NCBI GenBank assembly: GCA_020062745.1
Contig: JAGUVT010000017.1
Span: 1 to 58,145 of the forward strand
Direction: 5' to 3'
DNA from: Deltaproteobacteria bacterium
GTDB lineage: Bacteria > Bacillota > Desulfotomaculia > Desulfotomaculales > JAGUVT01
DNA length: 58,145 nt
Below are positions 3,548 to 17,618 of the stretch, piece by piece. The notes below the pieces were generated by a model. That model ran no database searches and had not been told where the DNA came from. It saw nothing but the letters and a program-made list of their open reading frames with translations. The position numbers and the translations under genes were made by a program. Each line of letters starts with the position of its first letter. Positions within the stretch are counted from its first letter, which is position 1.

Positions 3548-3553
3548 AAACTT

Positions 3554-3970: not shown

Positions 3971-4361
3971 CCTTACCGTTAGGCTTGTTTTGTTGAGAAA
4001 TTTTGATTGCCTCCGCCCACGTATTTCGCAAGTCTTCAATTATTTTTAGAATTTCCAGGAGGATCAGCTTATCTTTTTTGATATTGGCTTCCACCAGTCT
4101 ATGGTACATATACTCGTAGAGGCTGGATAAGGGTTTGGCTATTTCGTAATTCAGATCCAGGGCGTCTCTCAAGTGGATGATAATATCCTGGGCCCTGATT
4201 ATAGCGTTGTTTGTCCCGCTTATGTCTTTTTTATCCAGACATGAGCAGGCCTGGTTGATAAACCTGACGGCCCCGTTGTATAACATCAAAAGCAGTTGCT
4301 CCGGGCTGGCATTAAGGATGGCGTTTTGCTGGTATTGCTGATAAGGGTTGAGCAGCGCCAA
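3954..4361 (-). CDS. fliS: Flagellin export chaperone FliS
   Basis: NPYQQYQQNAILNASPEQLLLMLYNGA...LSSLYEYM..RLVEAN. Confidence 0.95.
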   Translation of the reverse strand: MALLNPYQQYQQNAILNASPEQLLLMLYNGAVRFINQACSCLDKKDISGTNNAIIRAQDIIIHLRDALDLNYEIAKPLSSLYEYMYHRLVEANIKKDKLILLEILKIIEDLRNTWAEAIKISQQNKPNGKDEKNA

Positions 4362-4376
4362 TTAACCAATCACCTC

Positions 4377-5948
4377 TTATTTATTTGTGGTAAGTTGAGA
4401 AAGCCAGGCGCTTTGAGCGTTCATCTGGCTGATGGCCACCTCGAGCGCGGTAAACTGTTTTACGTACCGTTCCTCGACTTGCACCAGATATAGTTCTAAG
4501 GTGCTTATCCGTTCATCAATGGTGCGGATGGAATTGCTTAAATTGTCGTTTTCGTAAAGAGAAAAGCTGTTGGGGTTGCCGGCCTCGGTGGTGACGCTTT
4601 TAATAGCGGATGATACCGCGTCGTAAATCTTAAGACCGATACCTTTTTCATCGGTAGTGGCCCCGTCCTGGGTAAACAGGTTGGTAACGCCCTCAATATT
4701 CTGGCTGATGGCTTCCTTAAGCTTTGTTTCGTTGATGTAGAGTTTACCGTTTTCATAATAACTGCCGGTGGTTATGCCGATCTGCGATAACTGGTTTAAA
4801 GTTGCCGGCAGCCCGCTGACGATTGAGGCCATTGAGGCACGGAAGTCGCTCATTATTTTATTGAGCAGGGAATTGTTGCGTAAAAGGCCGCTGCGGGCTT
4901 TTTCCTCCCACTTTTCGATTTGAGTGTCGGTGAGGTTTTCTTTTTGCTCGTCGGTCAAAGGGAGGTAATCGCGGTATCGTTCTTCACTTAACTTGTCGCT
5001 TATCTGCTCGATCAGCTTATTGTATTCTTCCACAAAGGTTTTGATGTTGTTAAAAACCTGGTCGATATCGCTTTGGACGGTGACTTTTACGGCGTCTGCC
5101 GCTGCCATGCTGGCGGTTTTGGCTTTTAGGTCAAAAGTTACTCCGTTTAGCGTGAAATTGTTGGTGTGCTCGACCACATCCAGGCTGTTTATGGTCATGG
5201 TGGCATCCTTGCCGCCCTGCTCGTTGGCCTGGCTGATATTGAGCACGCTGGCCAGGAAGCCGTCCGTATCCGTAATCTCAATTTCGTATCCGGCGGAGTT
5301 GTTGTTTCCTGTTTTGGTGGTGGCCAGGGAGATGCCGTCGCTTGTGGACCCTTTGGCGTAAAATGCGGTCAGGTCGAGGGAACTGTTGCTGATTTCCGTG
5401 AGCACGTCGTTTAAACTTTTTGTGTTGGCGTCAAAGCTAAAGGTTTGCTCGTTGCTTGTGCCGTCGTGGTTATATGTTTTTAAAGTGAAGGCAAAGGTGG
5501 AATGCGTATCAAAAAACGCCCCGCCGGCAAGCTTGCTTTTTTGCGACATCAGGGTGGCGTCAGGATCAACGGGGTTGCTGACATCTGTCGATATTTTAGC
5601 CGAGCTGACGTTGCTGGCAATTTCAGCGAGTTGGCTGATGTTAATGGTATAAGTGGTATTGGGTGTGTTGGTGGCCGGTTCGGCTGTGACTATTGTTTCA
5701 TTAGTAGAAACTGCTTTTTTGACCTGAAAGGTTGATTGTAGTTTTATGGAAAGCGCCCAACCGGAACGGAAACTGAGGAGAGAAAGGTTAATTCCTCTTA
5801 AATCCTCTCTTTTCCATTCCATTATCTGCTTGTTTTGTTTTAGTTTGTCGACTGGAATACGCTTTACGGCCATCAAGTCCCGGATCATGCTTTCGGTATC
5901 CAGGCCAGACGCCAGTCCGCTGATGCGCAGGATGCTGTTTATATTCAT
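4377..5948 (-). CDS. fliD: Flagellar filament cap protein FliD
   Basis: RISGLASGLDTESMI N-terminus; PLTDEQK...WEEKARSGLL; QFTALEVAISQMNAQ C-terminus. Confidence 0.95.
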   Translation of the reverse strand: MNINSILRISGLASGLDTESMIRDLMAVKRIPVDKLKQNKQIMEWKREDLRGINLSLLSFRSGWALSIKLQSTFQVKKAVSTNETIVTAEPATNTPNTTYTINISQLAEIASNVSSAKISTDVSNPVDPDATLMSQKSKLAGGAFFDTHSTFAFTLKTYNHDGTSNEQTFSFDANTKSLNDVLTEISNSSLDLTAFYAKGSTSDGISLATTKTGNNNSAGYEIEITDTDGFLASVLNISQANEQGGKDATMTINSLDVVEHTNNFTLNGVTFDLKAKTASMAAADAVKVTVQSDIDQVFNNIKTFVEEYNKLIEQISDKLSEERYRDYLPLTDEQKENLTDTQIEKWEEKARSGLLRNNSLLNKIMSDFRASMASIVSGLPATLNQLSQIGITTGSYYENGKLYINETKLKEAISQNIEGVTNLFTQDGATTDEKGIGLKIYDAVSSAIKSVTTEAGNPNSFSLYENDNLSNSIRTIDERISTLELYLVQVEERYVKQFTALEVAISQMNAQSAWLSQLTTNK

Positions 5949-5963
5949 AAGTTGGCCCTCCTA

Positions 5964-6338
5964 CTACCTTTTTTCATCTATAAACAAGCCGGCTATTTCC
6001 CACATCTTGGCAACCGCATCCAGGATTTCTTCCGGCGGTATTTCCCGAATAACTTTGTTTGTCTGATTATTAATTACTTTGACCATAATTTGTTTTGTTT
6101 CTTCGTGGATGTAGAATCTAAAGCTGCAGTCGGTGCCGTTTAAAGCATTGTTGGCTTTTTCGATTGCTTCTATTAATTTTCTTTCTCCTGTTGAAACCTG
6201 GGTATCCGCCGGTTTCTCCGGGACTTCCGCTGCCTCACCGGTTTTATCGCCCGGCTTTTTTCGGCCCTGGTTTTTGAGATTGGCCTGCAGGTTAACCGGC
6301 GGTGTGGGAGCGACCTGGCTGATCCCGTCGATTTTCAT
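5964..6338 (-). CDS. flaG: Flagellar protein FlaG
   Basis: FYIHEETKQIMVKVIN..T.KVIREIPPEEILD...AGLFIDEKR. Confidence 0.92.
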   Translation of the reverse strand: MKIDGISQVAPTPPVNLQANLKNQGRKKPGDKTGEAAEVPEKPADTQVSTGERKLIEAIEKANNALNGTDCSFRFYIHEETKQIMVKVINNQTNKVIREIPPEEILDAVAKMWEIAGLFIDEKR

Positions 6339-6373
6339 GGAGACCTCATCCTCCAGATAAATTATTTACCTAT

Positions 6374-6401
6374 TTATCGTTAAAGGCGGTTTAAAACTTT
6401 A
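6374..6401 (-). promoter_or_regulatory. Sigma28/SigD-type promoter for flaG-fliD-fliS
   Basis: TAAA-N16-AACGATAA on the minus strand versus consensus TAAA-N15/16-GCCGATAA. Confidence 0.55.
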
Positions 6402-6418
6402 GACTTTTAGTTTTTAAG

Positions 6419-6455
6419 TAAAGAAAGGAAAGACCGCAGTGTTGCGGCCTTTCCC
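6419..6455 (-). terminator. Rho-independent terminator after flagellin
   Basis: GGAAAGGCCGCA-acac-TGCGGTCTTTCC followed by TTTCTTT. Confidence 0.8.
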
Positions 6456-6462
6456 GTGGTCT

Positions 6463-7284
6463 TTACCGGAACAATTGGAGTACGTTCTGCGGGATCGTAT
6501 TGGCCTGGGCCAGCATGGAAGTAGCGGCCTGGTTTAAGATGTTCAGCTTGGTAAAGTTGGTCATTTCCTCTGCCATATCTATGTCGCGGATACGGGATTC
6601 GGCTGCGGTCAGGTTTTCAGCGATGGTTCCCAGGTTGTTAACTGTGTGCTCCAGGCGGTTCTGGTAGGCGCCCAATTTGGACCGCTCGGTAGAAACCGTT
6701 TCAATTGCACTATCAACTGTAGTGATGGCAGCTTGAGCCAGGGATACCGTAGAAACGCTTAAGCCGGAAAGAGCCGCCAGTGCGGCGCCGCTGACTGTCT
6801 GCATGTTGCTCATAGAAACAGTGATGGTCTGGCCGGAGCTGGCCCCTACCTGGAAGTTGAATGAAACGCCGCTTGCCAGAAGCTTTTGGCTGTTGAACTC
6901 GGTGTCGGTGGCGATACGGTTGATTTCACTCAACAACTGGCTTACCTCTGATTGAATTTGGGTCCGGTCGGCGTCTGTAAGGGTTCCGTTGCTTGCCTGG
7001 ACGGCCAGCTCCCTCATTCTCTGCAGGATGGCGTGGTCTTCGTTTATGGCGCCCTCGGCTGTTTGAATCATGGAGATGCCGTCCTGGGAGTTCCTGGAAG
7101 CCTGCTCCAACCCTCTAATCTGGCTGCGCATTTTTTCGGAGATGGCCAGTCCGGCAGCGTCGTCGCTGGCCCGGTTGACCCTTAGACCTGAGGATAAACG
7201 CTCCATAGCTTTGGATAAGGACACCTGGTTGCTTACCAGTTGGCGAGAGGCGTTTAACGCCATGATGTTGTGGTTGATTCTCAT
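6463..7284 (-). CDS. fliC: Flagellin (short, 273 aa)
   Basis: MRINHNI...[26 protein letters not shown]; [11 protein letters not shown]...[15 protein letters not shown]. Confidence 0.97.
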
Positions 7285-7290
7285 TTAGAT

Positions 7291-7325
7291 TCCTCCTTGA
7301 AGTAGTTTTTGGGGCATCCCTGCCC
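7291..7325 (-). promoter_or_regulatory. Putative tandem CsrA-binding sites in the flagellin leader
   Basis: Hairpin GGGCA-GGGA-TGCCC with GGA in the loop, plus the AAGGAGG SD; same architecture as the B. subtilis hag leader. Confidence 0.65.
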
Positions 7326-7379
7326 TTCTCTTGGTTGACAACCACTTTTGACTTTGCAAAAGGCCTTTTGCACTTATTT

Positions 7380-7406
7380 TTATCGGTTGTTTTTCCGGCA
7401 ACTTAA
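7380..7406 (-). promoter_or_regulatory. Sigma28/SigD promoter of flagellin
   Basis: TTAA-N15-ACCGATAA on the minus strand. Confidence 0.7.
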
Positions 7407-7493
7407 GAGTTGGGGGAGCTTTTTTGAAAAATATGAAGGAAAATTGGAAAAGGGGGAAAAAGAGAGTTTTGTTGAACTTTTAGTTGAAGGGTA

Positions 7494-7521
7494 TAAAGCG
7501 CCTGGATGGGAGGAACGAAAA
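7494..7521 (+). promoter_or_regulatory. Possible sigma28-type promoter for the maf operon
   Basis: TAAA-N16-AACGAAAA, close to the flaG promoter TAAA-N16-AACGATAA. Confidence 0.4.
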
Positions 7522-7573
7522 GTAAATAAGGAATTTAGTTAGATTGTTTGATTAAAAGAGGCGGTGATGATTT

Positions 7574-8008
7574 GTGAGGGTACCGGTTGATGGAAAGATG
7601 CTTTGTTTGGGTGATTTTATAGTTGATGTTTTAAGTACGGCTAAAGATTACCTCCCCCGTTTGAAAACAGGTTTAAAAGTTGCCTCCCTTTATTTTCAGT
7701 CCCGGGAGGAAGAAAAGGGGTCAATTGCTTTTCTTGAGATTTTAGAAGGGCTGGAGTGGGTAAATCAATTAATGGATAAAAGAGGGCTTCTTTTTAGCGG
7801 AAGATTGGCTTCCGACCGGGAGATAGATTTGAAAATCGGGGGTTATAAAGAAAAGTTAAGGGAGATGCTCGCTGCCTGGGAAAACAGGGATTACCTGTTG
7901 ATCGGCGACCTTCTTGAATATGAATTGATTCCCTTTGTTGATTATTTGATCATTAAGTTTGATGAGGCGATGTTGCTGGTAAGGGGAGAAGGCGAGGATG
8001 TTCTTTGA
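7574..8008 (+). CDS. Hypothetical helical protein of the type found beside maf genes
   Basis: ILEGLEWV...AWENRDYLLIGDLLEYELIP; overlaps the maf start. Confidence 0.7.
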   Translation: MRVPVDGKMLCLGDFIVDVLSTAKDYLPRLKTGLKVASLYFQSREEEKGSIAFLEILEGLEWVNQLMDKRGLLFSGRLASDREIDLKIGGYKEKLREMLAAWENRDYLLIGDLLEYELIPFVDYLIIKFDEAMLLVRGEGEDVL

Positions 8009-9827
8009 GAAGAACCTGGCTGTAATAAGGGAGAGGTTTCCTGAATTGACGGAGAAAGTAAAGCTTGAATCTTCTTTTTGCCGGGCGGCCGTAGCTAAGA
8101 ACGGCTTGCCGACTTTAAAAGCCATAGAGGGCGGGCGGGAGTTTTACCTTCACAGCCCTTATGATCCGGCTAATGAAGGCGACAGGTGGGCTGAAGGGCT
8201 TGATGCCACCGGCGAAAATGTTATTTGCGTTTTAGGAATCGGCATGGCCTATCACCTGGAAAAGGTCCTTGAGCGTTTTGCCGGTGTTTCCGTATTTGCC
8301 GTGGAACCGGCCGGCGGTCCGTTTTCGCTGGCGCTCCGGGAACGTGACCTCAGTCATCTCCTGGCGCATAGAAATTTAAATCTGTGCCTGGAGGAAGACC
8401 CCCTGGCCATCCGTGAATTTATCCACACCAGGATTAGTTATGAAATGATTGAAAAATTAAAGGTATTTGATTATCCGCCCATTGCCCGCGCCTTTCAGGA
8501 AAATTTTAAAGAAGTTAAAAAGGCTGTACTGGAAGGGGGGACGGCCGTATATGTTGATGTGGTTACCATAAGAACTTTTTATAAGCAGTGGACGGAAAAT
8601 GCTTATAATAATTTATTTCCCATCGTTCGCTCGCCGGGAGTTAAAGAGCTTTTCGGCCGGTTTGAGAATGTTCCCGGGATAGTGGTGGCTGCCGGTCCTT
8701 CCTTAAACAAGAATGTTCGCCTTTTAGCGGAAACAAAGGGCAGGATGCTGATTATTGCCGTGGATACGGCCGTGCGGGTTTTAATGAAAGAAGGGATTAC
8801 CCCGGATCTGGTGGTTACCATTGACCCCGAGCCTCTTACCAGTAAGCTTTGGGAAGAAGTAAAAACGGACTTATGTATTGTATTTGAAGCCGGTGTGCAT
8901 CACTGGATTCCCAATAATGTTGACGGCCGCTTTTTTGCTGCCAGGTGTAATCATTACCCCATGCTGGTCTGGCTGGAATCTGTCTTTCCGGAGAAGGGCC
9001 GGCTTGAGTTGGGCCCGTCTACAGCCAGTGTGGCTTTTAACCTGGCTTATAAAATGGGCTTGCGGCCGATCGTGATGGTCGGACAGGACCTTGCTTTTAG
9101 TGAGGGGTTGACCCATGCCAGGGATACAATGTTTGGCAGAGAAGTGGAGTCAGGGGAAAGCCTGGTTGAAGTGGAAGGTTATTATGGCGGCAAAGTAATG
9201 ACCAGTTGGCCTTTGCATTCTATGCTCCAATGGTTTGAGACCCGCATCAAGTTGCTTGAAGACTGTATGGTTATTAATGCTACTGAAGGAGGAGCGAACA
9301 TCCGGGGCACGGCCGGGATGGCTTTAAAGGAGGTTATAGCGCGTTTTGCTCTTCCGGAAGGGCAGGATTTTGCCGGTCAAATCAGGGAACTTCATGCCGG
9401 TTTGGACCGGGAAATCGAGGCTGGAAAAAATTTTGCCAAACTGGGGTCTTTGCTTCAGGGGGCGTTAGTGGATGTAGAAGAATGCAGGAGAGCCTGCGCA
9501 CGGCAGATTAAGTTAGCCGGGAGGCTGGTTGAAACTTGTGCCCGCAAGCCGGACAGCTACCGTATCCGGGAACTGGAAGGGCAGATTCAAAAGGCGAATA
9601 AGATCCTTTTGAAGGCCAGAAGTAAAATCCTGCATCTGCACCTGGCCTTTAATCCTTCCATAGAAGCCAGCCTGGGCAAAAGTTTTTTGCCGGTCTGGCG
9701 GGAAGGGATGCGGGGCGGTGAATTGGAGACTTTTATAAGTATTTCTGAGGAGTTAAAAGAAAAAGCTGATGAGATTATTTCGTATTTGAAAACCGTCCTG
9801 GCTAAAATTGAACGAAAACCTGGTTGA
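7998..9827 (+). CDS. maf: Motility-associated factor (Maf/DUF115) flagellin glycosyltransferase
   Basis: FEKNL..., LHSPYDP, VVAAGPSLNKN, IAVDTA, PDLVVTID, VGQDLAF...THA, INATEGGA motifs; adjacent to flagellin. Confidence 0.88.
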   Translation: MFFEKNLAVIRERFPELTEKVKLESSFCRAAVAKNGLPTLKAIEGGREFYLHSPYDPANEGDRWAEGLDATGENVICVLGIGMAYHLEKVLERFAGVSVFAVEPAGGPFSLALRERDLSHLLAHRNLNLCLEEDPLAIREFIHTRISYEMIEKLKVFDYPPIARAFQENFKEVKKAVLEGGTAVYVDVVTIRTFYKQWTENAYNNLFPIVRSPGVKELFGRFENVPGIVVAAGPSLNKNVRLLAETKGRMLIIAVDTAVRVLMKEGITPDLVVTIDPEPLTSKLWEEVKTDLCIVFEAGVHHWIPNNVDGRFFAARCNHYPMLVWLESVFPEKGRLELGPSTASVAFNLAYKMGLRPIVMVGQDLAFSEGLTHARDTMFGREVESGESLVEVEGYYGGKVMTSWPLHSMLQWFETRIKLLEDCMVINATEGGANIRGTAGMALKEVIARFALPEGQDFAGQIRELHAGLDREIEAGKNFAKLGSLLQGALVDVEECRRACARQIKLAGRLVETCARKPDSYRIRELEGQIQKANKILLKARSKILHLHLAFNPSIEASLGKSFLPVWREGMRGGELETFISISEELKEKADEIISYLKTVLAKIERKPG

Positions 9828-9852
9828 CAATTGTAGCACATTTGTGTACTAT
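9824..9852 (+). promoter_or_regulatory. Sigma70/SigA promoter of TA module 1
   Basis: TTGACA-N17-TACTAT with a CACA-tt-TGTG palindrome in the spacer. Confidence 0.7.
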
Positions 9853-9880
9853 TAGTGTAACTAATAAAAAAAGGAAAGAG

Positions 9881-10177
9881 GTGTTTCCTATCCGCTTTAT
9901 CAGCGTGCGCGACTTAAGATTGAAATCGGGTGAAATTTGGCGCGAGCTGCAAAAGGAAGGGGAACTGGTAATCACTTCTAACGGAAAGCCGGTGGCGGTT
10001 CTTTCCGGCATAGAAGCTGATCGCCTGGAGGAATACCTCCGGGCCCTGCGTCGCGCCCGCGCTGCCCTGGCCGTAAGTAGAATTCAGGAACGTTCCCGCT
10101 ATAAAGGGCTGGACGAGATTTCCGGGGCCGAAATCGAAGCTGAGATTCAGGCTGTCAGGCGGAGCCGGCCGCGATGA
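9881..10177 (+). CDS. Phd/YefM-family antitoxin
   Basis: RFISVRDLR...ELVITSNGKPVAVL; ATGA overlap with the PIN gene; probable GTG start at 9881. Confidence 0.85.
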   Translation: MFPIRFISVRDLRLKSGEIWRELQKEGELVITSNGKPVAVLSGIEADRLEEYLRALRRARAALAVSRIQERSRYKGLDEISGAEIEAEIQAVRRSRPR

Positions 10178-10587
10178 AAATAGTGCTGGACACGAATGTT
10201 TTGGTTTCCGGGCTGCTCAAATCCCACAGTCACGCGGGGACAATTGTACGGATGGTTGCTGGGGGTCTGTTGCAGGTTGTTTATGATGCCCGGATTTTGA
10301 CCGAATACAGGGAAGTGCTCAACCGTCCGAAATTCGGCTTTGAAAAAGTAGAAATAGGGGATATCCTTACCCAGATTGAAATGGAAGGCATCCTGGCCGC
10401 AGGTCGACCTTTGCCGGAGAAACTGCCGGATCCCGATGACGAACCCTTTCTGGAAGCTGCCCTGGTTGTTGATGGAACCGTCCTGGTGACCGGAAACAAA
10501 AAACACTTCCCGGCATCGGCCAATCAAAAAGTGGTTGTTTTAAACCCGGGGGAATTTATTTCTTTTTACCGGGAAACGGTTCAGTAG
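10174..10587 (+). CDS. PIN-domain putative toxin (PIN_3/VapC-like)
   Basis: KIVLDTNVLVSG...ILTEYREVL.RPKF...DPDDEPFLE...LVTGNKKHF. Confidence 0.9.
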   Translation: MKIVLDTNVLVSGLLKSHSHAGTIVRMVAGGLLQVVYDARILTEYREVLNRPKFGFEKVEIGDILTQIEMEGILAAGRPLPEKLPDPDDEPFLEAALVVDGTVLVTGNKKHFPASANQKVVVLNPGEFISFYRETVQ

Positions 10588-10603
10588 AGCGATTGATGTG
10601 ATC

Positions 10604-10710
10604 CTTGAAAGGCCTGGTTATGGACAGGATCAGTTCGGTGGATATCAACGATGCAGTGGACTTTAACGCTGGCGGAAAGCATTATGCAGGCCGGCTTATT
10701 TGATTGGAGG
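10604..10710 (+). pseudogene. 3' remnant of a neuA paralog (diverged direct repeat of 13268-13373)
   Basis: About 87% identical by manual alignment, mostly synonymous changes plus one indel; encodes LKGLVMDRISSVDIND. Confidence 0.85.
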
Positions 10711-10717
10711 GAATTTT

Positions 10718-11788
10718 ATGATGAAGCCTTTTAAGATCGGCGAGAAGTTTATCGGCGATGGTTGCCCCGCTTTTGTGGTTGCCGAGATGGCCTGGTCTCA
10801 CGACGGCTCCCCGGAAAAGGCTGAAAAGATTGTGGGAGGGGCGGCGCGGGCGGGCGCCGATGCCATCTGTTTTCACCTTACTTCTCTGGAAGACTACATG
10901 GTTCCGCATTACGGCAGCGGCCCGGGGCGGGTTTCGGCCGGCAAGGAGAGCCAGGAGATTTTCAAGTACCTGCAGAGCATCAATTTAGGCCGGCAGGATT
11001 GGGAGAAGCTTTTTGCCCTGGCGAAAAGGGCCGGGCTTCTTAGCTGCGCCATGTGCAACGACCTGCCCAGCGTGGAACTGGCTGCTGCTTTAAAACCGGA
11101 CGCCTATGTTGTTTCTTCCTCCTGCTTTGTTGAGGAGGAACTGGTGAAAACCGTGGGCGGGCGGAAAAAGCCGGTCTTTTTAAGGATTGGCGGAGCCCTC
11201 CTGGGAGAAATTGAAAGAGCCATTCAGTTGTTGAAAGAAGCCGGTAGCACGGACCTGGTTTTAATTTACGGCTTTCAGAATTATCCCACCAGGCTGGAAG
11301 ATCTTAACTTGCGATTCATTTCTACCCTGAGGCAGATCTTCGGCCTGCCGGTGGGGTTTGCCGACCACACCGACGGGGACTCCGAACTCGCCCTGGTTGT
11401 TCCTTTGCTGGCCCTCCCCTTTGGGGCAAGCCTGATTGAGAAGCACCTTACCCATGACCGGAGCCTGCGGGGCGAAGATTTTGAGTCGGCTTTAAACCCG
11501 GCTGAGTTTGCCGGTTTTGTTTCCCGGCTCAGAGAAATTGAAAAAACCTTCGGCTCATCAACCTTAAGGCCGCTTTCGGAGGCGGAATTGAGCTACCGGC
11601 TGGTTTCCCGGAAACGCACTGTCGCCGGGGTGTATATAAAGGCGGGAGAAGAAGTGACCGGCGAAAAGATAAGCTTTAAGAGAGCGGACGAAGGGGTATA
11701 TCCCGATGAAAGCAGGTTTCTTTTAGGCAGGAAAGCGAAGACGGAGATTAAAAGGAATGAAGGGATCACCCGGGAGAAGCTGGTATGA
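10718..11788 (+). CDS. Divergent NeuB-family (nonulosonate synthase-like) protein with SAF domain
   Basis: NeuB fold motifs NYPT, VGFADHT, IEKHLT and a C-terminal SAF domain, but AEMAWSHDG and AICFHL replace AEAGVNHNG and AVKFQT. Confidence 0.8.
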   Translation: MMKPFKIGEKFIGDGCPAFVVAEMAWSHDGSPEKAEKIVGGAARAGADAICFHLTSLEDYMVPHYGSGPGRVSAGKESQEIFKYLQSINLGRQDWEKLFALAKRAGLLSCAMCNDLPSVELAAALKPDAYVVSSSCFVEEELVKTVGGRKKPVFLRIGGALLGEIERAIQLLKEAGSTDLVLIYGFQNYPTRLEDLNLRFISTLRQIFGLPVGFADHTDGDSELALVVPLLALPFGASLIEKHLTHDRSLRGEDFESALNPAEFAGFVSRLREIEKTFGSSTLRPLSEAELSYRLVSRKRTVAGVYIKAGEEVTGEKISFKRADEGVYPDESRFLLGRKAKTEIKRNEGITREKLV

Positions 11789-11845
11789 TTGGCAGGCGGT
11801 TGGTCAAATAAGATCATTCCCTGGTAGAAACTATTTGCCACGGGC

Positions 11846-11874
11846 TTGACATATAACATATATGTCATTATACT
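11846..11874 (+). promoter_or_regulatory. Sigma70 promoter of TA module 2 with a palindromic operator
   Basis: TTGACA-N17-TATACT, overlapped by the perfect inverted repeat TGACATATA-aca-TATATGTCA (11847-11867). Confidence 0.8.
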
Positions 11875-11894
11875 ATTTTCCAGGGGTGATCTAA

Positions 11895-12122
11895 ATGAGA
11901 AAAACGATGGTTTATCTGGATGAGGAGCAGTTTCTTGTCTTGAAAAAAGTAGCCGCCTCCTCGAAAAAAAAGGCCTCGGAGATTATCCGCGAAGCATTGG
12001 CGGCTTATCTCCAGGAAAAAGACCGGATTGATTATTTTTCCTTTGTCGGGATTGCCGCAGGACCCGAAAACGGCTGTGCTTCCAAGGAAGCTGAAGATAT
12101 TCTCAAGGAGGTTCTGCGTTGA
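11895..12122 (+). CDS. CopG/ribbon-helix-helix antitoxin (VapB-like)
   Basis: MRKTMVYLDEEQ..LKKVA....SEIIREAL; overlaps the toxin start. Confidence 0.85.
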   Translation: MRKTMVYLDEEQFLVLKKVAASSKKKASEIIREALAAYLQEKDRIDYFSFVGIAAGPENGCASKEAEDILKEVLR

Positions 12123-12535
12123 TCCTGGTTGATACGGGAGCATTGTATGCCCTGGTGGACAGAAATGACGTTAACCACGTCGCAGCCGGGAAGTTTTACC
12201 GGAAGGTGGCCGGGAAAGAGATTCTATGCACGTCAATCTCCGTCTTGACCGAGGCGTGGTTATTGATCGATGCCCGCCTCGGCAATTATTTTGCGAATCA
12301 ATTATGGAAAGGAATTTGCGACGGCGCCCTGGAAATTTTGCCGTTGGAAAGAGAAGAGTTGCAGATGGCTTTGGAAATTGAAAACAAGTATGGCGGCGCC
12401 GGCTTCGGTTTTGTAGACGCTACCTGCTTTGCCCTTTGTGAAAAGCACAAGATTCGCCAGGTGTTTACGTACGACAAAAAACATTTTTCCATTTACCGGC
12501 CTCGCTTTGTTGAAACCCTGGAATTGCTGCCGTAA
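12119..12535 (+). CDS. vapC: VapC-family PIN toxin
   Basis: ILVDTGALYALVDRND.NH...VLTEA...FVDATCFALCE...VFTYDKKHF. Confidence 0.88.
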   Translation: MILVDTGALYALVDRNDVNHVAAGKFYRKVAGKEILCTSISVLTEAWLLIDARLGNYFANQLWKGICDGALEILPLEREELQMALEIENKYGGAGFGFVDATCFALCEKHKIRQVFTYDKKHFSIYRPRFVETLELLP

Positions 12536-12581
12536 AGCAGGTTGACGCATTTCATAATTTTATCGAATAAAGCATCTAAAT

Positions 12582-12660
12582 TGATGAGGCTGTTTCGTAT
12601 TTAAAAACCGCCTTGTCCAAAATTAAACCTGTAAAAGACCGGAACACGGAGGGAAGGTAA
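12582..12660 (+). pseudogene. 3' remnant of a maf paralog (diverged repeat of 9767-9813)
   Basis: 38/47 nt identical; DEAVSYLKTALSKIK versus Maf DEIISYLKTVLAKIE; its TAA overlaps the neuA ATG (TAATG). Confidence 0.8.
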
Positions 12661-13385
12661 TGACGGCAGCCGGTATAATTCTGGCCCGCGGCGGCTCGAA
12701 GGGGGTGCCGCGTAAAAATATAAGGCCGTTGGGCGGAAAACCGCTTATTTTTTATACTATTAAAGCAGCTCTTAAAAGCAGGCTGGATCGAGTTATCGTT
12801 TCGACCGACGATGAAGAGATTGCCGCTTGCGCCAGAGAATTTGGAGCGGAAGTTCCTTTTTTGAGGCCGGGGGAACTGGCTTTGGATGAATCAACTTCTC
12901 TTTCCGCGGTGCTCCATGCCCTAGAGTACCTGGAAACAAAGGAAAAATACTTTTCTCAGGTGGTTGCCGTCCTGCAGCCCACCTCTCCTTTCAGGACCCA
13001 TTTTCACATTAATGAAGGCCTGAAAGCGCTGACGGACTCCGGTGTTGACTCAATAGTGGGATTTTTGCCGGTATTTGAGACGCATCCTTATTTTATGTAC
13101 ACTGTTGACGGCCAAGGCAACTGGACGGAGTACGAAAAAATAAAGGATAAACCCACCAGGCGGCAGGACGTACCTCCCTGCTTTGTTATCAACGACGCTC
13201 TGGTTATCAGCAAAAGGAGTTATTTTGATACCGTTAAAGAAACTTCACCGGTATTCAACCCTTATAGCTTAAAAGGCCTGGTTATGGATCGGATCAGCTC
13301 TGTGGACATCAACGATGAAGTGGACTTTCTGCTGGCGGAAAGCATCATGCAGGCCGGCTTGTTTAACTGGAGGATAATTTGCTGA
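12660..13385 (+). CDS. neuA: CMP-nonulosonate synthetase (acylneuraminate cytidylyltransferase, NeuA/LegF-like)
   Basis: IILARGGSKGVPRKNI, VSTDDEEI, VPFLRP, LQPTSPFR, RRQD, SVDIND. Confidence 0.9.
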   Translation: MTAAGIILARGGSKGVPRKNIRPLGGKPLIFYTIKAALKSRLDRVIVSTDDEEIAACAREFGAEVPFLRPGELALDESTSLSAVLHALEYLETKEKYFSQVVAVLQPTSPFRTHFHINEGLKALTDSGVDSIVGFLPVFETHPYFMYTVDGQGNWTEYEKIKDKPTRRQDVPPCFVINDALVISKRSYFDTVKETSPVFNPYSLKGLVMDRISSVDINDEVDFLLAESIMQAGLFNWRIIC

Positions 13386-13658
13386 TCTTCTTGGGGAACT
13401 GTCCAAAGAGCATGTTAATGCAGTTAAAATCAAGGTTTGATATTGTTGGTGTTATGTTTTTAGCAACCTGACAGGATTAAACGACTGGATGGATTTGAAA
13501 CTCCACCCGGCCATTTGGTTTTTGGGTGGAAAAATCATTATCAATAACAGGTTTCACCCGTATTTGTTTAAGAAGGGCAAGCTTTTTTGTTGCAAAGTAT
13601 ATCTAAAGTTTCAAGTGTTTCTGGATACTTGAAGATGATGACATCAAAAGGTGGTGAG

Positions 13659-14321
13659 ATGTTGAAAGTATTGGTTATTGCCCCCCATCCGGACGATGAA
13701 ACCCTTGGTGCCGGGGGTACGCTTTTAAGACATATAGCTGGCGGTGATGAGGTTTACTGGTGTATAGTTACTCATGCTTTTGCGGACTCTGCTGATGATT
13801 ACCGTCAATGCAGGATTAATGTGATTGAAAAAGTTAACGAAGCTTATGGCTTTAAAGGATACTTTTTGTTGGACTTCCCGGCTGCCGGGTTGGATACGGT
13901 TCCGAGAAAGACAATTATCGATGCGTTATTTTCTATTTTCCATAAAGTTAAGCCGGATACTGTCTACTGTGTTGGGAATGGAGACGTGAACACAGACCAC
14001 GATGTAATATATGAAGCTTTAATGGCTGCTGCCAAGCCGGCTTATGTTCCTTTTTTAAAAGAAATCCTGTTGTATGAGGTGATTTCGAGCACTAACTGGG
14101 CATTTCCGGTTAAAAGTGCTTTATTCTTGCCGAATGTATTCGTTGATATTTCCGGGTTTATTATGAGGAAGCTGGAAATTATTGCTTTGTACGGAGAAGA
14201 AATCAAAGGGCCGCCTCACCCACGAAGCATTGAGATCTTAAAGTCATGGGGGAAGGTGAGAGGGTCGGCGATGAACGTGGAGTACGCCGAAGTGTTTCAT
14301 TTGGCAAGAAAAATCATTTGA
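13659..14321 (+). CDS. PIG-L/LmbE family N-deacetylase
   Basis: VIAPHPDDETLGAGGTL, DVNTDH, PNVFVDIS, PHPRS, YAEVF. Confidence 0.88.
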   Translation: MLKVLVIAPHPDDETLGAGGTLLRHIAGGDEVYWCIVTHAFADSADDYRQCRINVIEKVNEAYGFKGYFLLDFPAAGLDTVPRKTIIDALFSIFHKVKPDTVYCVGNGDVNTDHDVIYEALMAAAKPAYVPFLKEILLYEVISSTNWAFPVKSALFLPNVFVDISGFIMRKLEIIALYGEEIKGPPHPRSIEILKSWGKVRGSAMNVEYAEVFHLARKII

Positions 14322-14344
14322 CTGGGGATTGTTTAAAGACCCTG

Positions 14345-15334
14345 ATGATTTTTAACAAGAGGCAGGTTGTTGCTGTGCAAAGGCTGCTTGAAATCCGGCC
14401 GTATAAGGCGGGGGACGAGGAAAAAATTTTGAGTTTGTTTATGAAGGTTTTTGGCAAAGAAATGAGTGCTGCATATTGGAAGTGGCGTTTTCAGAATAAT
14501 CCGTCGGGCGGTATTTTTATTGATCTGATGTGGGATGACAATATACTGGCCGGTCATTACGCCGTATCGCCCATGAAAACATTAGTTAATGGAGAGAAAG
14601 AATATAACACTGCTTTATCTCTTACGACGATGACCAATCCTGATTATCAGGGGAAAGGTGTTTTTGTCGCTTTAGCAAACAAGTTGTATTCTCGCTTGAG
14701 GGAAAATGGTTTTACTATGGTATATGGATTTCCAAATATCAATATCCACCGCACTCGTGTCAAAAGTTTGGATTGGTTTGATATATATGAGATACCCACG
14801 TTTAGTCTGGACCTGGAAGGGTATGACCGGAAGCATGTTGATTTAAAAAATGTTGTCATTCTAAACAAATTTGATGTGCGTTTTGATTATCTCTGGGAGA
14901 AAGTGAAGGCTGATTTCGGAGTCATTACCGTGCGTGACCGCAAATATCTTGACTGGCGATATTCTTTGAATCCGCAGAATAAGTATTATATATTTGCATG
15001 TGTGGAAGGCGAAGACTTGTCGGGGTACGCAGTGTGTAAAAAGTACAAAAATGAAATCGATATTGTTGATCTGTTAACCGTCAACAACCCGGATGTCGGT
15101 ATGGACTTAATGAAAGGGATTATCGGGTGGGCCAAGAATCAAGACAGTAAAGCCCTCAATATGTGGTTGAATGTAACAAATTCGTTGCATCTTGCCCTGG
15201 AGAAGTGCGGTTTTCGGAATTGCGAGCCCATTACCTTCTTTGGTGCATGTGCGTTGGATGCCGGGTTTCCGCGTGGATTGGTTGGTGATTTCAGGAATTG
15301 GTATTTGACGATGGGTGATTCTGATGTTTATTAA
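14345..15334 (+). CDS. GNAT-family N-acyltransferase
   Basis: YWKWRFQNNP, TMTNPDYQGKGVF, YGFPN, VRDRKYLDWRY..NP; start uncertain (14345 or 14375). Confidence 0.8.
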   Translation: MIFNKRQVVAVQRLLEIRPYKAGDEEKILSLFMKVFGKEMSAAYWKWRFQNNPSGGIFIDLMWDDNILAGHYAVSPMKTLVNGEKEYNTALSLTTMTNPDYQGKGVFVALANKLYSRLRENGFTMVYGFPNINIHRTRVKSLDWFDIYEIPTFSLDLEGYDRKHVDLKNVVILNKFDVRFDYLWEKVKADFGVITVRDRKYLDWRYSLNPQNKYYIFACVEGEDLSGYAVCKKYKNEIDIVDLLTVNNPDVGMDLMKGIIGWAKNQDSKALNMWLNVTNSLHLALEKCGFRNCEPITFFGACALDAGFPRGLVGDFRNWYLTMGDSDVY

Positions 15335-15427
15335 ACCTGCTTGAAAAAATAAAGGGAAGTATGTTTGGAGAGATGGTTTCAGGTTGGTGTTGCAGTTGGT
15401 AAATAAATTGAGAGTTTGGTGATTTCT

Positions 15428-16612
15428 TTGAGAAAAGTGATGGTAGTGACCGGTATTCGTTCTGAATATTTTTTGCTGGAGCCCTTGTTGCAAGAAATCT
15501 ATAGTGATAATCTTTTTGAATTGCAGGTGGTGGTTACAGGGGCGCATTTAAGCCATCGTTATGGTAGTACCGTACGGGTTATTGAAGAAAGTTTTGGTGA
15601 AACAGAGAAGATAACTTCATTGTTTGACACTGATGAACCAATCGGAAGGGTCAAGGGTCTTGGCCTGATTGTTATGGAGTTATCCGAGCTTGTATGCAGA
15701 AAAAAACCTGACTTTCTACTGGTTCTTGGTGATCGGGAGGAATCCCTTGCTGTTGCTACGGTGGGTAATTACCTGAATGTGCCGGTTGTCCATTTAAGTG
15801 GGGGAGACCGGGCAATAGGTAACGTTGACGATCATGTGCGCCATGCAGTAACCAAGCTGGCCCATATCCATTGTGCATTTACCGGGGAAAGTGGCCGGAG
15901 GATAATTCAAATGGGAGAAGAACCCTGGCGGGTACACGTAACGGGTTCTCCCGGGTTGGATGGTATACTTAAGACGCCTTTTATGTCTGTTAAGGAGTTG
16001 GAGAATTCTTTAAAAATCAAGTTGGGCAGCCGGTTTTTTGTAGTTATCCAACATCCTATTTCTTCTGAGATTGTGGAAGGGGCAGAGCAGGTTAGTGCTA
16101 CCCTGCAGTCGATAGTAAATACGGGGGTTCCGGCTGTGGTCATCAGGCCTAACTCTGATGCCGGGTCACATCGAATAATAGATGTGATTGGGGAGTATAC
16201 GAATAATTATGATTTTATTTATAGCTTTTCGAACCTGCCCAGGCTGGAATTTGTGAATTTGCTGCGTCAAGCCGTGGCTCTGGTAGGTAATTCCAGCGCC
16301 GGCATCCATGAAGCACCGTTTTTAAAGTTGCCGGCGGTCAATATTGGGAACCGGCAAAAAGAAAGAGAGCACTCGACGAATGTTGTTTTTGTGCATTTTG
16401 ATGTTGAGACAATCACTTTTTATTTAAGGAAGCTTTTGGAGGATAAAAATTATCGAGAAGTTCTGGCAGATTGTGATTCGCCGTATGGTGATGGGAAAGC
16501 TGTTCCCAGGATAAAAGAATTAATAAAAGAAACAAAGATAGATAACAGGTTGCTCTATAAAGAGTTTATAGATTTAAATCTGGCGACGGGAGTGAAGAAA
16601 CTTGCGAGGTGA
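15428..16612 (+). CDS. neuC: Hydrolysing NDP-sugar 2-epimerase (NeuC/LegG)
   Basis: VVTGIRSEY, VTGAHLS, LVLGDREE, RHAVTKLAHIH, VGNSSAG, NIGNRQ, YGDGKA. Confidence 0.9.
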   Translation: MRKVMVVTGIRSEYFLLEPLLQEIYSDNLFELQVVVTGAHLSHRYGSTVRVIEESFGETEKITSLFDTDEPIGRVKGLGLIVMELSELVCRKKPDFLLVLGDREESLAVATVGNYLNVPVVHLSGGDRAIGNVDDHVRHAVTKLAHIHCAFTGESGRRIIQMGEEPWRVHVTGSPGLDGILKTPFMSVKELENSLKIKLGSRFFVVIQHPISSEIVEGAEQVSATLQSIVNTGVPAVVIRPNSDAGSHRIIDVIGEYTNNYDFIYSFSNLPRLEFVNLLRQAVALVGNSSAGIHEAPFLKLPAVNIGNRQKEREHSTNVVFVHFDVETITFYLRKLLEDKNYREVLADCDSPYGDGKAVPRIKELIKETKIDNRLLYKEFIDLNLATGVKKLAR

Positions 16613-17618
16613 TAAAGTATTTATCATCGCTGAAGCGGGCGTCAATCACAACGGGGACCTGCGGCTGGCCGAACGGCTTGTGGATGCTGCAGTGGAAGCC
16701 GGCGCCGATGCGGTTAAGTTTCAAACCTTTAAAGCTGAGCGGGTAGTTGCGGCGACTGCTAAAAGGGCGGAATACCAGAAGAAAAATATGCCTGAAAAGG
16801 ATGAAACCCAGTTTGCGATGCTCAAACGCCTGGAGCTTGGATTCGATGATTTCAGGGAACTGAAAAGTTATTGCGGCCGCCGGGGAATTGTTTTTTTATC
16901 CTCTCCTTTTGATCTGGAAAGTATAGATTTTTTGGACGAGCTGGGTGTGCCGTATTTTAAAATTCCTTCGGGGGAGATAACCAACCTTCCTTTTTTGCGC
17001 CGGATCGGCCGTAAACGCAGGCCGATTATTCTTTCTACGGGCATGTCCACTCTGGGCGAGATTGAAGGGGCGGTAGAGATATTAAGGAAGGCTGGAACGC
17101 AGGAGCTGACCTTGCTTCACTGTACGACCAGTTACCCCGCGCCGCCGGAAGAAGTCAACCTGCGGGCGATGTTAACTTTAGAGCAGGCCTTCGGGTTGCC
17201 GGTGGGTTACTCCGACCATACCATAGGCTTTGCCGTTCCTGTTGCTGCTGCGGCCCTGGGAGCTTCGGTTATCGAAAAACATCTTACATTGGATTGCCGG
17301 ATGGAGGGACCGGACCATAAAGCTTCGCTGGAACCGGCCGAATTTAAAAGTATGGTGGAAGCTGTCCGGATGGTGGAAAAAAGCCTGGGCGACGGCTTGA
17401 AGAAACCGACCATGCGGGAGTTAGAGATTATGCCTGCTGTGCGGCGCAGCATAACAGCCGCCATGGATATCAGGGCAGGCGAAAGAATTATGGAGGAGTG
17501 CCTGACGGTGAAACGCCCGGGGACAGGTATATCCCCAATATTCTGGGATTTTTTGCTGGAGAGGGAAGCCCGCTGCGATATACTGGTGGATACGGTGTTG
17601 ACGTGGGAAATGGTTTAA
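16602..17618 (+). CDS. neuB: Nonulosonic acid synthase (NeuB/LegI), canonical
   Basis: IIAEAGVNHNGD, AVKFQTF, SSPFD, KIPSGE, ILSTGM, LHCTTSYP, GYSDHT, IEKH, GPDHKAS. Confidence 0.92.
   Translation: MRGDKVFIIAEAGVNHNGDLRLAERLVDAAVEAGADAVKFQTFKAERVVAATAKRAEYQKKNMPEKDETQFAMLKRLELGFDDFRELKSYCGRRGIVFLSSPFDLESIDFLDELGVPYFKIPSGEITNLPFLRRIGRKRRPIILSTGMSTLGEIEGAVEILRKAGTQELTLLHCTTSYPAPPEEVNLRAMLTLEQAFGLPVGYSDHTIGFAVPVAAAALGASVIEKHLTLDCRMEGPDHKASLEPAEFKSMVEAVRMVEKSLGDGLKKPTMRELEIMPAVRRSITAAMDIRAGERIMEECLTVKRPGTGISPIFWDFLLEREARCDILVDTVLTWEMV

Follow-up and report, generated by a model that had tools for sequence, protein, structure and literature searches.

Toxin–antitoxin pairs beside gene-end remnants in a flagellin-glycosylation island of a Desulfotomaculales genome

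Background

How do toxin–antitoxin (TA) pairs come to lie inside a flagellin-glycosylation operon, each of them followed by the dead 3′ end of another gene of that operon? The question is raised by contig JAGUVT010000017.1 of assembly GCA_020062745.1 (a 2.69 Mb draft in 148 contigs, order Desulfotomaculales), of which positions 1-58,145 were analyzed (58,145 nt, hereafter the window). Here the flagellin glycosyltransferase-like gene maf, the CMP-sugar synthetase gene neuA and a divergent gene of the NeuB family (neuBdiv) are interspersed with two TA pairs (TA1 and TA2) and with remnants of the 3′ ends of neuA (stub B) and maf (stub A′). An earlier note on this DNA had read the arrangement as an undescribed system of TA-guarded, repeat-bounded cassettes by which flagellar glycan alleles are swapped and locked. 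We favor another reading, to which we give a probability of about 55%, namely a mosaic nonulosonic-acid flagellin-glycosylation island with selfish TA passengers at its recombination junctions. It draws on the anatomy of the junctions, on a TA-free arrangement of the same genes in a related genome, on the pattern of changes in stub B, and on the whereabouts of TA pairs elsewhere in the order and in this genome.

Gene order, repeats and junctions

Domain searches with Pfam and NCBIfam returned the order maf, Phd/PIN_3 pair, neuA 3′ stub, divergent NeuB, ribbon-helix-helix (RHH)/PIN(VapC) pair, maf 3′ stub and neuA, just as the earlier note had described it. The features are as follows.

7998-9827, + strand: maf, flagellin glycosyltransferase-like, intact (Pfam MptE-like, 133 bits)
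9824-10587, + strand: TA1 cassette, consisting of promoter, Phd/YefM antitoxin and PIN_3 toxin
9824-9852, + strand: TA1 promoter, TTGACA-17-TACTAT, starting within maf (promoter scan)
9881-10177, + strand: Phd/YefM antitoxin of TA1, GTG start (PhdYeFM_antitox 32.1 bits, cut-off 29.8; TIGR01552 29.2 bits, cut-off 20.8)
10174-10587, + strand: PIN_3 toxin of TA1 (71 bits, cut-off 27), with an ATGA overlap with the antitoxin at 10174-10177
10604-10722, + strand: stub B, the neuA 3′ end, identical with repeat B and beginning 16 nt past the PIN_3 stop (10587)
10718-11788, + strand: neuBdiv, divergent NeuB-family synthase (Pfam NeuB 164 bits, plus SAF)
11846-12535, + strand: TA2 cassette, consisting of promoter, RHH antitoxin and PIN/VapC toxin
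11846-11874, + strand: TA2 promoter, TTGACA-17-TATACT over a palindrome, the best of the scan (11/12)
11895-12122, + strand: RHH antitoxin of TA2 (RHH families only below their cut-offs, E 6e-4 to 6e-3)
12119-12535, + strand: PIN/VapC toxin of TA2 (Pfam PIN 54 bits, cut-off 23.6), with a 4-nt overlap with the RHH gene
12582-12660, + strand: stub A′, the maf 3′ end, starting at 12582 at the latest (blastn part 12582-12628)
12660-13385, + strand: neuA, PseF-like CMP-sugar synthetase, intact, containing B′ (13268-13386) and with an altered C-terminal tail

Beyond its MptE-like match, maf reached 108 bits on the NCBIfam PseD domain (cut-off 670) and 20.6 bits on Maf_flag10_N (cut-off 23.5), and a flagellin gene lies 700 nt upstream of it on the opposite strand. 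Direct repeats were searched by self-blastn of window positions 1-20000, which returned exactly three pairs, all of them significant and in agreement with the repeats of the earlier note, and each is present in two copies when the whole 2.69-Mb assembly is searched.

Repeat A/A′, 9767-9813 and 12582-12628: 80.9% over 47 nt, E 1.5e-5; spacing 2815 nt; longest identical run 10 nt
Repeat B/B′, 10604-10722 and 13268-13386: 85.0% over 120 columns, E 4.7e-31; spacing 2664 nt; longest identical run 17 nt
Repeat D1, 1022-1118 and 3554-3650: 95.9% over 97 nt, E 9.7e-40; spacing 2532 nt; longest identical run 69 nt

The stop codon of maf (TGA, 9825-9827) falls inside the -35 hexamer of the TA1 promoter, by which it is supplied. 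Repeat A sits in the 3′ end of maf, and if a 6-nt gap is allowed, A and A′ may be alike as far as ~9825. An upstream extension of A′ was not significant, its score being reached by 1383 of 2000 shuffles, and A′ is significant over 47 nt only. The frame of stub A′ ends at a TAA (12658-12660) that overlaps the ATG of neuA (12660), and the stub holds a ribosome-binding site (RBS), GGAGGG at 12648-12653, ahead of that ATG. Stub B corresponds to about the last 40 codons of neuA in two frames, which are split by one extra base near 10665-10668 (a frameshift); in a tblastn search with neuA, 10602-10664 matched at 95% and 10669-10710 at 93%. It likewise carries an RBS (GGAGGG, 10706-10711), placed 6 nt ahead of the ATG of neuBdiv (10718), and overlaps the start of this gene. 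Both remnants can accordingly be described, as was proposed before, as true 3′ ends of maf and neuA that bring along the RBS of the next gene, and they would persist because the following gene has its RBS and its start overlap within them. In annotations, the stretches 10588-10717 and 12536-12659 should be recognized as gene stubs and not as “intergenic” sequence.

The TA2 promoter begins 57 nt after the stop of neuBdiv. In the TA2 toxin, acidic residues near positions 5, 45, 100, and 118 are the same in the window protein and in two orthologues, and these may belong to the PIN active site. Strong sigma-70-like promoters were found in the scan on both TA pairs, which bears out the SigA-type promoters postulated earlier, and the same scan gave no terminator-like site in the interval from either toxin to the next glycan gene. 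Because the promoters are strong, conserved and not followed by such a site, read-through from them into neuBdiv and neuA is plausible; the promoters themselves are probably of a constitutive type and autorepressed.

A related genome without the TA pairs

A related metagenome-assembled genome (MAG; source label Peptococcaceae bacterium) has maf, neuA, neuBdiv and the genes for a radical SAM protein (rSAM), a legF-like protein, a methyltransferase (MT) and a GFO oxidoreductase on one 46,872-nt contig, and its proteins compare with those of the window as listed here.

RJQ30976.1 (P0001): neuA, 91% to window neuA
RJQ30975.1 (P0127): neuBdiv, 90% (321/356) to window neuBdiv
RJQ30977.1 (P0137): maf, 73% to window maf
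RJQ30967.1 (rSAM), RJQ30966.1 (legF-like), RJQ30965.1 (MT) and RJQ30964.1 (GFO): each in a 90% cluster with the window protein

Sequential accessions follow gene order in GenBank practice, and since maf, neuA and neuBdiv bear three consecutive ones (RJQ30975.1-RJQ30977.1), no protein is annotated between them. A long gene call of the relative’s neuBdiv (P0128) opens with an other-frame reading of the neuA 3′ end, colinear with window positions 10670-10717, from which it follows that neuA runs straight into neuBdiv in this genome. In the relative the distance from neuBdiv to rSAM spans seven accessions, and in the window seven open reading frames (ORFs) come after neuA before rSAM is reached. 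The four TA proteins have no 90% cluster-mate from the relative’s contig, and of 64 VapC homologues (E ≤ 1e-40) none was on a contig of that length; PIG-L, canonical NeuB and legC of the window also have no 90% cluster-mate from there. The window maf, which is 90% identical to P0136 and 73% to both P0137 and P0138, appears to belong to a different allele class from that of the related MAG.

Because the relative shows a TA-free order maf-neuA-neuBdiv, the arrangement of the window is the derived one: relative to the ancestral order, two TA cassettes have been inserted and the order of neuA and neuBdiv has been permuted. Further searches for the locus were made in other collections. At the DNA level, 41 genomes of the same order yielded matches only to a part of TA1 and to a short piece of neuA. 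A metagenome scan with maf gave 122 stretches that fit the pattern, none of which encoded a relative, and a scan with the relative’s neuA (P0001) gave 17 loci, the best full-length match being at 41% and one 74-residue piece at 59%, with the relative’s contig not among them.

What the stubs record

B and B′ differ at 11 nt but at only 2 amino acids (aa) in 34 codons, and as few aa changes were reached in 1 of 100000 random placements of 11 changes. Since the changes are almost only synonymous, the two copies diverged at a time when both encoded a working protein, and stub B stems from a second, once-functional neuA allele, whether this belonged to another of two lineages or to one of two long-lived genes. 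The C-terminal tails point the same way: the second frame of stub B ends in ...DWREFYDEAF and the neuA of the relative in ...DWREFYDDEAF, as against ...NWRIIC in the intact neuA of the window. Because its tail matches that of the relative and the tail of the window neuA does not, stub B seems to have kept the ancestral neuA/NeuB junction, and the intact neuA seems to have acquired a new tail. The single frameshift is the sole sign of decay, and the stub has apparently been dead only briefly. A pure target-site duplication had first been favored for all stubs, until the synonymous pattern of B/B′ and the allele tails of the relative shifted the weight to two diverged alleles.

TA cassettes as mobile units

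Three further families of the order have orthologues of TA1 (toxin 69-71% aa, antitoxin 60-74% aa, 67-74% nt), and the nucleotide similarity to the three genomes concerned (G015, G008, G002) is confined to the stretch from the promoter through the toxin stop. For TA2, orthologues at 70-83% were found in seven genomes, and the nucleotide similarity at these 7 loci starts at 11846, the first base of the -35 hexamer, and ends at 12536-12543. The neighborhoods of the TA2 orthologues are unrelated, with seven different ones for seven loci (a chemotaxis receptor, a DUF1848 fragment, dehydroquinate synthase with a PilB-type ATPase, an FAD oxidoreductase, LysM/GH18 with a sugar epimerase, and unknowns). 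No glycan-gene homologue was seen next to the 3 TA1 loci, with the exception of one weak ptmE-like match (36%, 74 residues) ~5 kb off at one of them. In a sensitive self-comparison of flanks of 1.3-2.5 kb, flanking direct repeats appeared at 1 of the 10 orthologous TA loci. The expectation that junctions of a TA pair and a 3′ remnant would recur across relatives was thus largely disappointed, as the orthologues sit in unrelated contexts and nine of ten have no flanking repeat. Among five flagellar glycan islands inspected in the same order, none has a homologue of the window TA genes inside the glycan operon; in one of them a PIN_3 gene of 32% identity lies ~1 kb past maf. A sixth locus amounted to no more than a 3.3-kb fragment.

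The ratio of nonsynonymous to synonymous substitutions (dN/dS) of TA2 against its orthologues is 0.08-0.11; for TA1 the synonymous sites are saturated, with a proportion of nonsynonymous differences (pN) of 0.18-0.24. The TA genes are intact and, judging by these values, under purifying selection, and both pairs are ordinary, mobile modules that are probably active.

Two details of the orthologous loci are recorded here. In G015:C15 (L076, 9181-9473, - strand) the Phd gene of the TA1 orthologue is split by one missing base and its PIN_3 gene is intact, which may reflect either an antitoxin-defective TA or a sequencing error. In G044:C2 (L085, 151-1103 and 1250-1917) a gene pair of 78 and 128 aa beside the TA2 orthologue is bracketed by a 65-nt direct repeat of 92% identity, and because this small gene pair lies between such repeats, the repeat-bounded TA pattern would extend beyond the genome of the window.

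The divergent NeuB and the rest of the island

Flagellin, flaG, fliD and fliS lie upstream of maf on the opposite strand, and the remaining glycan genes, assigned with Pfam and NCBIfam, follow neuA.

13587-25285, + strand: remaining glycan island

Its first part, 3′ of neuA, is a set of the legionaminic-acid type (PIG-L deacetylase, double GNAT, UDP-GlcNAc 2-epimerase, canonical NeuB, PglD-like protein, dehydratase, aminotransferase); after the aminotransferase come rSAM-SPASM, a second CMP-synthetase (legF-like), MT, the GFO oxidoreductase and a CBS-nucleotidyltransferase. The canonical NeuB (16602-17618) scores 483 bits on TIGR03569, over the cut-off, and a family search located three NeuB-family places in the genome, two of them within the island; the notion of neuBdiv as the sole NeuB, which had arisen from a tblastn search without a second copy at E 1e-3, was overturned by this search. 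neuBdiv stays under both equivalog cut-offs (TIGR03569, 204 vs. 399.65 bits; TIGR03586, 167.5 vs. 340.25 bits). It is, by Pfam, a member of the NeuB family to which neither the N-acetylneuraminate nor the pseudaminate synthase name fits, and it should not be named after either.

Against 162 genomes of the order, the best non-self match of the neuBdiv protein was at 35%, so that no close relative is among them; the closest orthologues of the protein (53-60%) came from MAGs labelled Hadarchaeota, Methanomethylicales, Chloroflexi, Clostridiales, and Alphaproteobacteria. The order rSAM - neuA - neuBdiv - legF - (MT) - GFO is found in 3 of the 7 closest loci, neuA ending ~5 nt before the NeuB start, and legF follows the neuBdiv orthologue in five of the seven, the contigs of the other two ending there. 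Since neuBdiv is part of this conserved set of rSAM, neuA, neuB, legF, MT and GFO genes, and since it is kept in the TA-free relative and in distant phyla, it is not to be seen as a spare allele of the canonical NeuB. In the Hadarchaeota and alphaproteobacterial MAGs, the six genes for rSAM-SPASM, CMP-synthetase, neuBdiv, second CMP-synthetase, MT and GFO have counterparts at 50-64% (window 20417-24182 vs. L045, L046, L048). The six-gene set is probably a horizontally spread pathway for a modified nonulosonic acid.

GC content ranges from 0.42 to 0.63 across blocks of the island, as against 0.514 for the genome. The uneven identity to the relative, the allele class of maf and this spread in GC content mark the island as a mosaic, which would have been assembled from pieces with different histories.

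TA loci between direct repeats in the genome

The assembly has 21 distinct places with PIN or PIN_3 matches (19 plus 4, of which 2 are shared). A whole-genome self-comparison gave 93 local direct-repeat matches 150-8000 nt apart; after two contigs with >3 pairs were dropped (the tandem array of C79, 9 pairs, and C102, 4 pairs), 44 pairs 400-3500 nt apart were kept, which enclose 2.5% of the genome. Seven of the 21 PIN places lie inside such pairs against 0.44 expected, and none of 5000 random placements reached seven; the figure covers PIN toxins only, with placements that ignore the clustering of TAs in islands, and TA1 is uncounted, A/A′ being below the search threshold. Because a third of the PIN loci genome-wide lie so, a TA pair between direct repeats is not specific to glycan genes, and the pattern “TA pair between gene-end copies” would then be a property of TA insertion in this organism. 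Flanking repeats made of the 3′ end of the target gene were seen for A/A′, for D1, and for the islets on contigs C92 and C86.

On C92, a gene of the AP_endonuc_2 family is followed by a Phd/PIN pair, whose promoter has its -35 box 2 nt after the gene stop, and then by a 170-nt copy of the gene’s end at 96%. This stub differs from its parent at 8 nt and 5 aa, and 7931 of 20000 random placements were as conservative; unlike stub B, it looks like an in-place duplication followed by decay. C10 and C98 have MazE/PIN and Phd/ParE pairs between two-copy repeats. Three enclosed PIN places (two on C4 and one on C52) are bounded by repeats that are multi-copy, dispersed, or unclear. PF00589 tyrosine recombinases gave 8 matches in the genome, none on the window contig and none within ~8 kb of the islets examined.

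Other islets of the genome deserve mention as well. On C86 (15479-16647; L101, 3479-4647) a MazE/PIN_3 pair occupies a ~1-kb islet behind tRNA-Ser(CGA), with a 63-nt copy (90%) of the 3′ part of the tRNA at the other end of the islet and no integrase nearby. On C54 (10119-12005; L107, 2119-4005) a TA-less islet of 1.8 kb stands behind tRNA-Ala(CGC), has a duplicated tRNA 3′ end, and contains ORFs of 130, 97, and 98 aa without Pfam match. C4 (49300-54300; L105) holds three PIN toxins, one Phd-like and one RHH antitoxin and, 390 aa long, a protein in which a motif of the Fic type (HPFxDGNGR) occurs; two different TA pairs of this island lie between copies of the same two repeats (161 nt, 92%; 61 nt, 87%), interleaved a-b-a′-b′ as in the window. 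C52 (48000-53000; L104) has a dense TA cluster (HepT/MNT fusion, Phd/ParE, several PIN) and a 77-nt repeat that is dispersed in ~8 copies on other contigs.

Proposed history and competing explanations

In the history that we favor, the ancestral order would have been maf - neuA - neuBdiv - seven legionaminic-type genes - rSAM - legF - MT - GFO, with neuA coupled to maf by a stop/start overlap and neuBdiv overlapping the tail of neuA. At least two diverged partial copies of this unit would have been joined by recombination with foreign or allelic DNA, the likeliest route of import being a homologous anchor on one side and an illegitimate join on the other (“3′ displacement”), and redundant pieces would then have been lost. 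What would be left is one maf of the other allele class, one neuA and one neuBdiv in swapped order, and two dead 3′ stubs. The Phd/PIN_3 and RHH/VapC pairs, both of type II, are generic mobile promoter-to-stop cassettes and would be selfish passengers at the ends of the imported pieces, which may make the loss of a segment costly. At least three recombination events seem to be needed, whose order and kind we infer.

Several points weigh against this history. A and A′ show no synonymous bias, with 9 nt and 5 aa differences in 15 codons, in a maf tail that is variable among homologues, and stub A′ is only modestly closer to the relative-type mafs (16/20 for P0138 vs. 10/15 for the window maf, compared by eye). 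Neither 5′ remnants of a second neuA or maf nor a second post-neuBdiv copy were found, four of four comparisons being non-significant (post-neuA vs. post-neuBdiv; maf 5′ vs. post-neuBdiv; neuA 5′ vs. the maf/TA1 junction; post-neuA vs. the TA1/B junction). The absence of TAs in the relative is read from consecutive protein accessions, the P0128 overlap and a protein search, and a pseudogenized TA or stub would escape these.

The earlier idea that two related maf-neuA-neuB units were merged stands in part: the relative has a TA-free unit, stub B represents a second neuA allele, and at least two diverged partial copies would have met. Because no 5′ remnants exist among the comparisons, a full second unit is not demonstrated, and a single unit with donor-derived 3′ ends also fits. 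For the same lack of 5′ remnants, the companion claim that TA modules replaced gene bodies is reduced to one of several histories.

That only a single unit was ever involved is a tentative possibility. Two TA insertions would each have duplicated the 3′ end ahead of them, giving maf-TA2-A′-neuA and neuA-TA1-B-neuBdiv, and a block swap would have followed; the insertions could have been Campbell-type single crossovers of a circularized donor fragment or homology-facilitated illegitimate recombination, the stubs being resident and the ends of the intact genes donor-derived. Such a course accounts for the missing 5′ remnants and for a stub B with ancestral protein and tail and the changes on the intact neuA end. 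It also agrees with the succession of gene, TA and copy of the gene’s 3′ end on C92 and C86, with the TA pairs between two-copy repeats on C10 and C98, with the excess of PIN loci between local direct repeats (7/21 vs. 0.44), and with the position of the C92 -35 box right after the upstream stop, much as at maf/TA1. However, it needs an extra three-breakpoint block swap that has left no trace, the cassette starts having only the TTGACA hexamer in common. Today TA1 stands after maf and not neuA, and TA2 after neuBdiv and not maf. The mainly non-synonymous changes of the C92 stub, unlike those of B, further suggest that origins may differ, and for three of the seven enclosed PIN loci (those on C4 and C52) the nature of the bounding repeats takes away from the analogy.

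Rather unlikely is a bolder reading, in which the TA cassettes would be portable junction modules of a recombinase-free process, with glycan genes exchanged as addiction-protected units under TA promoters. Each import of DNA from relatives would have had a homologous anchor and an illegitimate end just past the toxin stop and would have left a displaced stub with the RBS of the next gene, by which this gene would be placed under an autoregulated TA promoter; the two units “TA - stub - glycan gene” would have been shuffled in order, and the excess of PIN loci between repeats would be the genome-wide footprint of the process.

The dedicated system of the earlier note, with TA-guarded, repeat-bounded cassettes that swap and lock flagellar glycan alleles and with TA promoters that drive glycan genes, is unlikely. 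In its favor, the TA cassettes sit exactly at the junctions, two like-built units can be delimited, each with promoter, antitoxin, toxin, RBS stub and glycan gene (9824-11788 and 11846-13385), no terminator-like site separates toxin and glycan gene, the TA genes are intact and under purifying selection, and D1 with 69 identical bases in a row could recombine. Efficient RecA recombination needs ~25 nt or more of identity, and the identical runs in A/A′ and B/B′ measure only 10 and 17 nt. As these pairs have diverged too far to support efficient homologous deletion, a TA lock has little to guard against; losses by way of the repeats should be rare whether or not the toxins are present, and only D1, which has no toxin, could recombine readily. 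The supposed protection of an extra neuB from loss by repeat recombination also falters on neuBdiv itself, which is no extra gene but part of the conserved six-gene set and is retained in the relative that lacks the TAs. Nor are the TA orthologues linked to glycan genes (TA2 in 7/7 unrelated contexts, 1/10 TA loci with flanking repeats, 0/5 same-order islands with a homologue of the window TA genes in the operon), and addictive chromosomal TAs do not conserve their neighborhoods according to Belot, Payelleville, Jurenas, Rocha, and Van Melderen (2026, PMC13617665). With a signature that is found genome-wide, we see no evidence for a dedicated swap-and-lock system.

It is very unlikely that the islets are decayed site-specific integrative elements, of which A/A′ and D1 would be attL/attR and from which the integrase and other genes would have been deleted, leaving TA and cargo. 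The duplication of a tRNA 3′ end is a classical sign of integrase-mediated insertion, and it is displayed by the tRNA-Ser islet with its TA (C86) and by the tRNA-Ala islet (C54); acquisition by mobile elements followed by streamlining is also what Belot et al. (2026, PMC13617665) propose. However, no integrase lies in or beside any islet, the nearest of the 8 PF00589 matches being more than ~8 kb from the islets examined, A/A′ has no identical core beyond its 10-nt run, the targets differ every time, and B/B′ and the swapped order are left unexplained.

The least probable explanation is an assembly artefact, a contig in which strain variants of the island, two in number, were fused. In its favor, the draft has 148 contigs, and for maf and neuBdiv only one contig pair is on record. 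However, the stubs border on full TA cassettes, promoters included, and not on sequence of strain variants. Stub B diverges by 15% and is frameshifted, 4 contigs are on record for the exact RHH, neuA and flagellin proteins and 2 for PIN_3, and similar repeat-bounded TA islets occur on many other contigs.

Comparison with known systems

Each component of the locus is of a known kind: type II TAs in variable regions, recombination stubs, and mosaic flagellin glycosylation islands. Flagellin glycosylation islands with maf and nonulosonic-acid pathways are known from Campylobacter, Aeromonas, Clostridium, and Geobacillus, and the island of the window resembles them in having maf by flagellin and fliD/fliS/flaG, legionaminic-type genes, and a content that is highly variable between relatives; it differs from them in its second, divergent set of NeuB, CMP-synthetase, rSAM and MT genes and in the TA cassettes inside the operon. 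Integrative elements that insert at the 3′ end of a tRNA gene or protein gene duplicate the att site, and cis-mobilizable derivatives of them that lack an integrase exist. Here too an intact target gene stands at one end and a partial 3′ copy at the other, in the literal sense at tRNA-Ser and tRNA-Ala of this genome, but there is no integrase, no identical core in A/A′ and B/B′, and no common target, and the inserts measure 1-3 kb. TA cassettes reportedly hinder the deletion of segments in superintegrons and integrative conjugative elements. The logic of a lock, by which the loss of a TA-bearing segment kills or arrests the cell, would be the same, whereas those segments are bounded by active sites or long identical repeats and A/A′ and B/B′ are too diverged. 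As regards integron cassettes, there is no tyrosine recombinase on the contig, and the flanks are two-copy gene 3′ ends with no shared attC family (attC structure was not formally searched).

Two published settings come closer. Addictive chromosomal TAs occur in spots of high turnover and do not preserve their neighborhood, as described by Belot et al. (2026, PMC13617665), who interpret them as selfish passengers, and the TAs of the window are like them in being small, self-contained and patchy, with their own promoter, in variable regions, with no mobility gene adjoining and with similarity over the whole operon including the promoter. They are unlike the TAs of that study (PMC13617665) in their position inside a biosynthetic operon, where they directly abut a stop codon at one end and the remnant of a dead gene at the other, and in their flanks, which are 3′ ends of genes or tRNAs here and Tn3 res-like palindromes there. 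Kirchberger et al. (2017, PMC5361080) explain orphan 3′ ends in type VI secretion system (T6SS), Rhs and contact-dependent inhibition (CDI) loci by homology-facilitated illegitimate recombination. An upstream anchor, an illegitimate downstream join, orphan 3′ stubs, and an incoming toxin with its antidote would be shared with the 3′ displacement described there (PMC5361080). In contrast to the arrays treated there (PMC5361080), the genes displaced are two housekeeping-type glycan genes without an immunity partner and not the toxin, there would have been two or three events in place of a long array, and the stubs keep the translation signals of the next gene where the Rhs/CDI/T6SS 3′ ends keep an immunity gene. 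The resemblance would be one of mechanism and not of family membership. Among the titles and abstract openings of the literature searched, none told of a flagellar glycan operon that contains TA cassettes together with stubs bearing an RBS, which is not proof that no such account exists.

If the modest reading, that of selfish TA passengers in a mosaic island, is true, the locus offers a clean and datable case of TA cassettes settling at recombination scars inside an operon, and of selection that spares, out of a dead gene, just the few dozen bases required for the translation of the next one. According to Belot et al. (2026, PMC13617665), the entry of bare TA cassettes into chromosomes is little understood to this day, and a lineage with many fresh-looking insertion footprints could make their entry testable. 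In this genome short local direct repeats, among them 3′ ends of tRNAs or genes, enclose a third of the PIN-type TA loci, a finding that merits a study of its own.

Third islet and other features of the window

The D1 repeat bounds a third islet, to which the earlier note had extended its pattern.

1022-3650, no strand assigned: third islet, bounded by the 97-nt repeat D1
1125-1448, - strand: orphan XRE-type HTH_3 gene (“higA”), without toxin partner (Pfam)
1556-2548, + strand: Rpn/YhgA-like gene (DUF4351 52 bits; Transposase_31 just under its cut-off), divergent from the HTH_3 gene
2744-3316, + strand: ORF that fuses a DUF4351 fragment to a nucleotidyl-transferase fragment

At 6 nt past the stop of the HTH_3 gene stands a 96% copy of the last 64 nt and the 33 downstream nt of the ORF at 3587-4039 (- strand). 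The remnant behind “higA” was hence real, although the gene has no toxin partner, and the ORF that it copies, which comes after fliS, is “fliT-like” by position only, with no Pfam or PADLOC match; the PADLOC search for defense systems matched none of 10 proteins. Of the four Transposase_31 matches that the genome contains, two exceed the cut-off, and Rpn-like nucleases might conceivably help illegitimate joins. Next to the islet, a sugar-transferase ORF (3-1046, + strand) matches Bac_transf positions 1-118 of 179 and stops just after the GPRPE motif, with a GC content of 62.5% against 51.4% for the genome; at its break a 28-nt palindromic terminator-like hairpin (990-1021) abuts D1. The ORF is a gene cut short where it meets the third islet.

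A structured RNA was considered for the GC-rich stretch 3335-3553 and rejected, as its folding goes only modestly beyond that of shuffled sequences (z -2.7 and -2.4) and a terminator-like hairpin lies inside it; RNA families gave no match at E ≤ 1 in 900-3800. The only RNA family of the window at gathering thresholds is a full-length OLE RNA (55259-55879, + strand; 543 bits, model positions 1-616 of 616), which fits an anaerobic Firmicute host.

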